From the sequence record NC_016158.1: a DNA stretch of 49,576 nt; one strand, written 5' to 3'. Position 1 is the stretch's first letter; the number at the start of each line of letters is the position of its first letter. Source of the stretch: Escherichia phage HK639. Made by a program: the position numbers and the translations under genes. Shown in pieces: positions 14,605 to 15,365 of this stretch. Below the pieces are notes generated by a model. The model was not told where the DNA came from. It saw nothing but the letters and a program-made list of their open reading frames with translations, and ran no database searches.

Positions 14605-14680
14605 CCCTCTTCTGCGGGTTTTGCCTTTGTCTGAATGCTGTTAGGATTAGTCCGAGCTTTCACCGAAGGAAGATAGGGGC

Positions 14681-15094
14681 ATGCAGAAACTTATTTTGGT
14701 CATGGGCATCATCGCTTTGGTTGGATGTGCCACCAAGCCAATTTCAACTGAGCAGGCTAAGCCAGCGCCAGCGAAACAAATTCTTGATAACACTCTCTTT
14801 ACGAAAAAGGCTGGCACCGGGGAGGTTGTGATTAAACGTGATTCTGGTTATGTGGGGAGCGCTTGTTTGACGAGGGTTTATGTCGATGGGCGTGAAGTTG
14901 CCGATCTTGACCCTGAACAAAAAATCACAATCTACCCCACCTTGGGGGATCACATCTTCAGCGCGTGGCCAAAAGGAATGTGTGGTGGGGGTATGAGTGA
15001 ACAGGCAGGTAAAGTAATCGAAGGTAAGGTATTAACTTACAGGATAGGTTACGGCTCTGGTTCAGAATTTGGGATTTACCCAACCGCATTTTAA
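14681..15094 (+). CDS. lipoprotein (moron)
   Basis: 137 aa; signal peptide with lipobox LVGC (MQKLILVMGIIALVGCATK); own RBS AAGGAAGA; followed by terminator; inserted between TMP and tail-tip genes. Confidence 0.6.
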   Translation: MQKLILVMGIIALVGCATKPISTEQAKPAPAKQILDNTLFTKKAGTGEVVIKRDSGYVGSACLTRVYVDGREVADLDPEQKITIYPTLGDHIFSAWPKGMCGGGMSEQAGKVIEGKVLTYRIGYGSGSEFGIYPTAF

Positions 15095-15131
15095 CCACTA
15101 ACCAAGACCTCCCGGGCCTATAGCCCAACAA

Positions 15132-15155
15132 GCCTCGCTGACGCGGGGCTTTTTT
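15132..15155 (+). terminator. rho-independent terminator
   Basis: GCCTCGC-TGAC-GCGGGGC hairpin plus TTTTTT. Confidence 0.6.
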
Positions 15156-15365
15156 GTCGGCGCAAGGCTCGGTCTTGTTGGTTAAAATCTGAGCGCCTCT
15201 TTCAGATGGGGCCAAATACTACAGCAATCTTTTGGTTGGTGCATTGCTATCTGGACACGGTTTTTGTGCAAAAAGTGCTATTGAGCAAGATTTTGACCGT
15301 TTGAAGCGAACCATAGGTTCAACCTATCTCCTGTGATCGTGACAATAGTTTACTATTACCTGAGG

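Follow-up and report, generated by a model that had tools for sequence, protein, structure and literature searches.

We analyzed the genome of Escherichia phage HK639 (NC_016158.1), a stretch of 49,576 nucleotides (nt) hereafter called the window, in which a gene for a 137-amino-acid (aa) lipoprotein directly follows the tail tape-measure gene H. Phages of this lineage all but reserve the first slot behind the tape-measure gene for small envelope proteins, and the lipoprotein that fills it in HK639 tracks the tail-tip module, which is conserved, and does not follow the receptor-binding end of the phage's own J protein. We tentatively favor, with confidence somewhat short of even, superinfection exclusion by the lipoprotein at an entry step that follows adsorption. 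The gene is 99% identical to many Enterobacter prophage genes, and its family (PHROG 890) is catalogued and uncharacterized. An initial annotation, made from the sequence of the window, had read it as a lipoprotein moron of a kind that often acts in superinfection exclusion, blocking either receptors or DNA entry; the underlying observation is confirmed, and that interpretation as a whole is partly supported by the results described below.

Interchangeable cargo between H and M

The lipoprotein gene comes first in the 2,060 nt between the stop codon of the tape-measure gene and the start of the gpM homolog (ATG 16665), at which the conserved tail genes restart. GC content is about 48% in the lipoprotein gene and 40–47% in the pair of genes downstream (40–50% over the region), compared with 52–59% in the flanking tail genes H, M, and L. 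The initial annotation had proposed an insertion directly after the tape-measure gene and had treated the lipoprotein and a YafO-like cassette as one accessory island of roughly 2 kb. The insertion, whose coding sequence starts 76 nt past the tape-measure stop, is borne out by presence and absence among relatives, by allelic replacement, and by the lower GC content. The low-GC island is real as well, but the lipoprotein and the YafO cassette are adjoining, independent modules that meet at the lipoprotein terminator.

Eighty IMG/VR loci were fetched by gpM similarity (at least 89% identity) and pooled with loci collected earlier; 96 of the pooled loci have both a window-like tape-measure end and gpM, and 76 of these form an unbiased set that was not pre-selected for the lipoprotein. 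H abuts M in none of the 96, and the gap between the two ranges from 310 to 4,949 nt. By a crude test (a predicted lipoprotein, or a small protein anchored by a signal or transmembrane segment), the first gene after H encodes an envelope-type protein in 58 of the 76 unbiased loci, and such a gene lies within the first two in 71. These first-slot proteins fall into 11 unrelated clusters, and only 14 of the 92 other cargo clusters look envelope-type. Relatives with gpM at least 89% identical hold other genes at the lipoprotein site. The alternative first-slot proteins all belong to PHROGs of unknown function and have no Pfam match; one allele, cl1b, weakly matches the Cor exclusion family (phrog_1119, E 5.5e-5, residues 4–64). 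Homologs of the alternative first-slot lipoprotein cl1 include ES18 gp20 (L195, record 10865–18080), annotated as a "possible moron", and a gene of Klebsiella phage KpF5 (L196), both immediately upstream of the tape-measure gene. Upstream of several unrelated first-slot genes lies a common leader with the translation (M)LIKGMIVK, suggestive of a shared recombination or ribosome-binding site (RBS) junction.

Behind the first slot lies a second with diverse cargo, including toxin-antitoxin-like pairs. In the window it holds a phrog_8416 gene and a YafO-family toxin gene. The two encoded proteins are 100% identical in locus L118, where other first-slot genes precede them; L024 has the lipoprotein alone, and in further relatives a 99%-identical lipoprotein is paired with any of at least five other cargoes. 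Mapped by pairwise blastn, the cassette joints lie at the tape-measure stop (14604), at the lipoprotein terminator (15129–15157), at the last hairpin before M (16641–16649), and, in L132, inside the lipoprotein gene. DNA homology with L100, which has a different first-slot gene, stops exactly at 14604, and homology with L006, L023, L024, and L025 stops at 15154–15157. Homology of L118 to the YafO cassette begins at 15129, where the first hairpin follows a different lipoprotein gene. In L024, position 15155 is fused directly to 16644, so that the ends of the first and last hairpins meet and the whole second slot is deleted. Terminator hairpins thus double as cassette joints.

A lipoprotein allele 52–54% identical to that of HK639 occupies the same site in L132, L137, and L141 (~5530–5931). 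It retains the KRD motif, both conserved cysteines, and R121, and is without the C-terminal TAF. The L132 allele (54%) has the signal-peptide DNA in common with the window up to 14760 and diverges thereafter, a pattern that we read as allelic replacement of the mature domain.

Receptor masking as practiced by Llp and Cor requires a blocker that matches the receptor of its own phage, and J offers a test of this. Within the window's clade the lipoproteins are 99–100% identical and the J N-termini 95–100%, compared with 42–82% for the last 300 aa of J. A paired comparison over 34 loci, mostly those with the gene between K and I, yielded 54 pairs with lipoproteins at least 95% identical; in these pairs the C-terminal 250 aa of J have a median identity of 34% (minimum 19%), and the J N-terminus has one of 97%. 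Near-identical lipoproteins thus accompany unrelated J C-termini, which speaks against a mask of the Llp/Cor type for the receptor that the phage itself uses; the receptor-blocking version of the initial annotation is disfavored, and our mechanistic hypothesis shifts to entry blocking. Checking for covariation with J is also an inexpensive computational means of telling candidates for receptor masking from those for entry blocking.

The lipoprotein and its family

The encoded protein begins MQKLILVMGIIALVGC, followed by ATKP, and no in-frame start lies upstream, the open reading frame (ORF) list opening at the first ATG, GTG, or TTG past a stop. We judged the lipoprotein signal by our own reading against a PROSITE PS51257-type rule: an N-terminal basic residue, a hydrophobic core, and [LVI][ASTVI][GAS]C with the cysteine at position 15–35. 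The signal is canonical, with MQK (K at residue 3), the core LILVMGIIA (residues 6–11 uncharged), and A-L-V-G-C at residues 12–16, which confirms the LVGC lipobox named in the initial annotation. Cys16 is invariant among 42 aligned homologs, Gly15 is conserved in at least 90%, and 6 of the 42 match PF08139 (LPAM_1). Cys16 would be lipidated and become residue 1 of the mature protein. With alanine and not Asp at +2, the E. coli rule predicts Lol-dependent sorting to the outer membrane and anchoring there. As a predicted lipoprotein, and hence exported, the protein would not be a cytoplasmic tail-assembly factor.

The gene has its own RBS and terminator, as first annotated. The purine-rich RBS GAAGGAAG lies at 14665–14672, 9–16 nt 5' of the ATG. 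The intrinsic terminator consists of a 9-bp GC-rich stem (15130–15151) followed by UUUUUUG, a run of six U; the 41-nt stretch that holds it (15122–15162) folds at -19.5 kcal/mol, with z = -2.7 relative to shuffles. A small hairpin past the tape-measure stop (14600–14632) is not credible as a terminator (-6.2 kcal/mol, z = -0.6).

The designation as a moron in the Juhala/Hendrix sense is supported by presence or absence between conserved genes, by the gene's own terminator, and by deviating GC content. In the strict sense of an independent unit expressed in the lysogen it is unproven, because no consensus sigma-70 promoter was found on the plus strand between 14300 and 16550. The only promoter lead is TGtTAGGAT (14639–14647), a possible extended -10 element within a conserved leader: positions 14637–14680 are identical or nearly so in the eight relatives that have this leader, and the 3' end of the tape-measure gene has many substitutions. 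Nor was a consensus promoter found upstream of the gene in representatives of the arrangements between K and I, T and H, and I and J (four related contexts). The versions between K and I and between T and H have no sense terminator that we could find and are flanked by gaps of 33–84 nt (33–64 nt between K and I).

PHROG 890 ("lipoprotein") is matched over the full length of the protein (E 2.4e-48, residues 1–137 on positions 1–136 of the 136-position profile). It is the sole PHROG family matched beyond spanin profiles that cover only the signal peptide (residues 1–35, E 0.06–0.3); with the lysis cassette located elsewhere in the window, we rejected an Rz1-like spanin identity. Neither Pfam nor PADLOC (both at E ≤ 1) nor NCBIfam offers a model for the lipoprotein. 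Anti-phage defense models (PADLOC-DB 2.0) do not match the lipoprotein, the 202-aa ORF downstream, or YafO at E ≤ 1, and at the same threshold the lipoprotein matches neither Lambda_Bor (PF06291) nor the Cor, Llp, or Bor families or other exclusion PHROGs and Pfams. No functional study of a PHROG 890 member turned up in the literature, which was searched for H20-like phages, mEp390, DUF2846, and Klebsiella prophage lipoproteins.

A family profile search returned 1,589 cluster representatives at E ≤ 1e-3, 894 of them at E ≤ 1e-10; because so many representatives match, the 137-aa ORF is not a chance ORF. Nearly all are stand-alone, full-length proteins of ~135–145 aa. Enterobacter hormaechei commonly carries a protein 99% identical to that of HK639. 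Relatives at 55–70% identity are found in Klebsiella (one variant on 679 contigs), Citrobacter, Salmonella, Yersinia, Xenorhabdus, and Erwinia, those at 42–54% in Vibrio and environmental metagenomes, and phage-encoded ones at about 30–39% in Pseudomonas; all are named "hypothetical protein" or "lipoprotein". At the DNA level, positions 14400–16700 had no match in phage records or in complete E. coli genomes, and the 99%-identical E. hormaechei protein was read as placing the host in Enterobacter.

A confident AlphaFold2 model (pLDDT 87.7) packs the N-terminal 30 mature residues on an eight-stranded sandwich, and the mature part is predicted to be a compact, generic transthyretin-like β-sandwich. 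Fold searches agree on this generic class and go no further: they yield only transthyretin-like or immunoglobulin-like sandwiches, with no Foldseek match in the PDB at E ≤ 1e-3, no PDB sequence-profile match at E ≤ 10, and an uninformative DUF4352 protein as the best viral match (BFVD, E 6e-5). TssJ-type transthyretin-fold outer-membrane lipoproteins resemble the modeled protein at the level of the fold only, with 9–19% identity.

The invariant residues are K52-R53-D54, G56, C62, C101, G103, R121, and G125, and a C-terminal PTAF is conserved; the invariant residues are kept from Enterobacter to Vibrio and, at lower identity, in Pseudomonas. The most conserved segments are the loops at 54–63, 98–105, and 125–129, while the loops at 85–88 and 113–116 vary. 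This concentration of invariant residues in loops suggests a conserved ligand. Judging from strand order, not from coordinates, the conserved loops would lie at one pole of the sandwich, with a C62–C101 disulfide stapling two of them. A distant relationship to the uncharacterized lipoprotein family DUF2846 (PF11008) is possible, as 13 of 42 relatives match it weakly (best E 1.5e-4); the HK639 lipoprotein does not match PF11008 even at E ≤ 1, and we know of no function for DUF2846. Bdellovibrio Bd1399, annotated as DUF2846, proved to be DUF4360-like and offers no lead.

Distribution and mode of action

Three results go beyond the initial annotation: the two-slot architecture between H and M, the lack of covariation with J, and the promiscuity of the family among tail-operon junctions. 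We placed reference tail proteins on 99 loci by tblastn and added annotated records and called genes. Within tail operons the family gene always lies on the tail-gene strand, at no fewer than four junctions. That between H and M is the site in the window's own clade (87–100% identity). The majority site is between K and I, as in Pseudomonas phages and in E. coli phage mEp390, whose gp17 is 29% identical to the HK639 protein. Members also occur between I and J and, in Yersinia, between the T chaperone gene and H. P2-like prophages carry a member after gene D, and SSU5-like phage-plasmids carry members as well. In Vibrio anguillarum H20-like phages (25 Vibrio phage records) the member, a "putative lipoprotein", lies 15 nt downstream of the cI repressor gene and is co-oriented with it, a position that would imply expression in lysogens. 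Despite these different sites, mEp390 gp17 and the Vibrio protein share size, lipobox, KRD motif, and two conserved cysteines with the HK639 lipoprotein.

Outside phages, a member lies in an island beside HNH and SduA_C (Shedu-like) genes (L181 215–2534), another in Nitrospira beside a ribbon-helix-helix/PIN toxin-antitoxin pair (L180 6001–7916), and another in Vibrio alginolyticus in a small integrase and YagK/YfjJ-type island (L183/L184 3000–7250). This range of insertion sites marks the gene as a mobile cassette of a single gene, carried by temperate phages, phage-plasmids, and islands of the mobile or defense type. gpK is the commonest upstream neighbor, and we considered an immunity protein against its NlpC/P60 domain; this idea was set aside because members occur in P2-like phages, phage-plasmids, and islands in which no K was seen nearby.

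Several observations count in favor of exclusion. The site between T and H is the slot of the HK97 exclusion moron gp15, the neighbors outside phages include Shedu-like and toxin-antitoxin genes, and the H–M junction is biased toward envelope proteins, among them the weakly Cor-like allele. Precedents for exclusion genes in tail operons, namely HK97 gp15 and the llp and cor genes beside receptor-binding genes, likewise support the initial annotation. HK97 gp15 was the first moron described and lies between the tail chaperone and tape-measure genes; it is an inner-membrane protein, expressed from the prophage, whose block of genome entry depends on the tail region of the phage coming in and is independent of the receptor (PMC3594210). 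The HK639 gene resembles it in being accessory, in lying in the tail operon beside the tape-measure gene, with the Yersinia members sharing its very slot, and in encoding a small envelope protein; however, gp15 is a YebO-like inner-membrane protein, the HK639 product is a lipoprotein, and we found no sequence relationship between them.

TP-J34 Ltp targets the tape-measure protein, according to Bebeacua 2013 as cited in PMC3952083. A lipoprotein that acts at the entry step on the incoming tape-measure protein is the functional model that we favor for HK639, although Ltp sits on a Gram-positive surface, its gene is in a lysogeny module and not a tail operon, and it does not appear among the fold matches listed. 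Ltp is helical, unlike the predicted fold of the HK639 protein.

In the mechanism that we propose, the lipoprotein, a single small transthyretin-like β-sandwich anchored in the outer membrane and facing the periplasm, would protect a lysogen, or an infected cell, from other phages. Its acting surface would be the conserved loops stapled by the Cys62–Cys101 disulfide. It would act after receptor recognition, on the periplasmic passage of the tail tip or of the tape-measure protein, or alternatively on a conserved envelope component needed for DNA entry, and would be of the HK97 gp15 and TP-J34 Ltp type, not a receptor mask of the T5 Llp or Cor type. The lack of covariation with J, together with core residues that are invariant from Enterobacterales to Vibrio and persist in Pseudomonas, argues for such a conserved target. 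If entry blocking is indeed the function, the family would be a common, unannotated resistance determinant, relevant to host-range failures in phage therapy of Enterobacter, Klebsiella, Citrobacter, and Salmonella, and a genomic rule for exclusion genes would follow: look for the first small exported protein past the tape-measure gene. If the protein has no such function, it is one more prophage lipoprotein of unknown role.

A bolder extension, doubtful but deserving mention, is that the site behind the tape-measure gene serves as a hypervariable locus dedicated to entry exclusion, at which at least 11 unrelated small envelope proteins are interchanged by recombination at shared leaders and terminators, with PHROG 890 as a broad-spectrum periplasmic blocker. 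Such a blocker would recognize something conserved, either in the tail tips or tape-measure proteins of incoming siphoviruses or in an envelope factor on which these depend. This would explain why the lipoprotein tracks the tail-tip module and not the receptor-binding domain, and why the family has colonized at least four junctions from Vibrio to Pseudomonas.

Post-adsorption exclusion has to be weighed against receptor masking, in which the lipoprotein would bind the periplasmic side of J's outer-membrane receptor, block adsorption of related phages, and keep progeny from binding to cell debris. We consider this unlikely. The setting suits it: a predicted outer-membrane lipoprotein is encoded in the tail-tip operon near J, much as llp and cor adjoin receptor-binding genes (PMC11990801), and Llp is a periplasmic outer-membrane lipoprotein (bioRxiv 10.1101/2022.06.28.497910). 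T5 Llp, the Cor proteins of T1, phi80, and N15, and the HK639 protein are all small phage lipoproteins, with a predicted place at the periplasmic face of the outer membrane. Llp and Cor are about half the size of the HK639 lipoprotein. Late co-transcription with the tail genes would also fit protection of progeny, and the cl1b allele points the same way. Against these stand the divergent J C-termini described above, the absence of a Cor, Llp, or Bor sequence match, and the absence of an Llp chain among the PDB fold matches listed. Core residues are moreover kept across Enterobacterales, Vibrio, and Pseudomonas, whose receptors differ, and P2-like myophages and phage-plasmids, whose adsorption apparatus is unrelated, have members too.

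A host-fitness or virulence role of the Bor/TraT type, in which lysogenic conversion would bring serum resistance, envelope-stress tolerance, or adhesion and no phage-phage effect, seems distinctly unlikely. The gene is a prophage-borne outer-membrane lipoprotein cassette with a terminator and deviating GC content, turns up widely in genomes of clinical Enterobacter, Klebsiella, Citrobacter, and Salmonella, and, behind cI in the Vibrio phages, is suggestively placed for expression in lysogens; lambda Bor is itself such a lipoprotein, going by the text of PMC3594210 that points to its ref. 24. However, neither Lambda_Bor nor any other Pfam model matches, environmental hosts such as Nitrospira, a sponge symbiont, and an Antarctic Pseudomonas, for which serum resistance has no relevance, have members as well, and the preference for tail junctions and the slot shared with about ten other envelope proteins are easier to account for by phage-related selection.

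Very unlikely, finally, is a helper of the lytic cycle that is expressed only with the late tail genes and conditions the peptidoglycan or outer membrane for release or neutralizes debris: the constant sense orientation within the late operon, the close spacing between K and I with no promoter or sense terminator found, and the lack of a consensus promoter in the window would agree with it, but a terminator, in the window and in the version between I and J, would be pointless for a purely late gene, the Vibrio homolog lies in a repressor operon and others in non-phage islands that lack tail genes, the lysis genes of the window form a cassette of their own at 45.2–46.8 kb (holin and endolysin genes 45217–46503), the spanin matches are confined to the signal peptide, and close relatives with other first-slot genes in place of the lipoprotein appear to be intact phages.

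Features of the window

Table 1. The lipoprotein cassette and its neighbors in the HK639 window (positions in nt)
Feature	Position	Strand	Basis
Tail tape-measure gene, gpH homolog, 1024 aa	11530..14604	+	ORF; its stop is the left border of the variable region
76-nt leader carrying RBS GAAGGAAG	14605..14680	+	Sequence
Lipoprotein coding sequence, 137 aa, PHROG 890	14681..15094	+	ORF and profile match
Predicted signal peptide with lipobox LVGC, residues 1–16	14681..14728	+	Rule reading; conservation of C16 and G15
Intrinsic terminator, also right border and recombination joint of the lipoprotein cassette	15130..15157	+	Folding; ends of homology
Second-slot gene 1, phrog_8416, function unknown	15571..16143	+	Profile match starts at residue 13
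Second-slot gene 2, YafO-family toxin	16152..16589	+	PF13957, E 1.3e-20
Two terminator hairpins closing the island	16588–16607, 16628–16649	+	-12.7 and -18.0 kcal/mol; z = -4.6 and -3.9
Minor tail protein gpM homolog, 116 aa	16665..17015	+	PF05939, E 1e-19; products of relatives are 116 aa

The tape-measure proteins of close relatives contain PF06791 (TMP_2) and PF09718 (Tape_meas_lam_C). The first gene of the second slot was listed as a 202-aa ORF from 15535, which has no Pfam, NCBIfam, or PADLOC match; its true start is likely Met13, giving a protein of 190 aa. It ends 8 nt upstream of the YafO-family toxin gene and is a candidate non-canonical antitoxin partner of YafO; YafN-like antitoxins are about 100 aa long. 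NF007377 scores the YafO-like protein at 66.5 bits, under its cut-off of 153. The second of the two closing hairpins is the right joint to gpM. The listed gpM ORF (16608–17015) begins at a TTG and overlaps these hairpins; relatives and the Pfam match indicate ATG 16665 as the probable real start.

Over its whole length the window is 100% identical to IMG/VR contig IMGVR_UViG_2597490004_000001 (locus L020), which is equally long. The rest of the window is that of a temperate lambdoid siphophage, with an integrase gene (26022–27185) and a gene for a cI-like repressor with helix-turn-helix and S24 domains (36292–36981), both on the minus strand. Two tRNA genes also lie within it, tRNA-Ile(GAT) at 33694–33763 on the minus strand and tRNA-Asn(GTT) at 44363–44437 on the plus strand.

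Elsewhere in the tail operon, a 226-aa ORF (10141–10821) between the major tail gene and the G/T chaperone genes carries Phage_Tail_Tip (PF09327, E 2e-9); its counterparts in otherwise near-identical relatives are 227–296 aa long, and this site may be a second variable spot. A third insertion site is seen between gpL and gpK, where L007 (~8391–9140), L009, L185, and L194 carry a 249-aa gene with no Pfam match.

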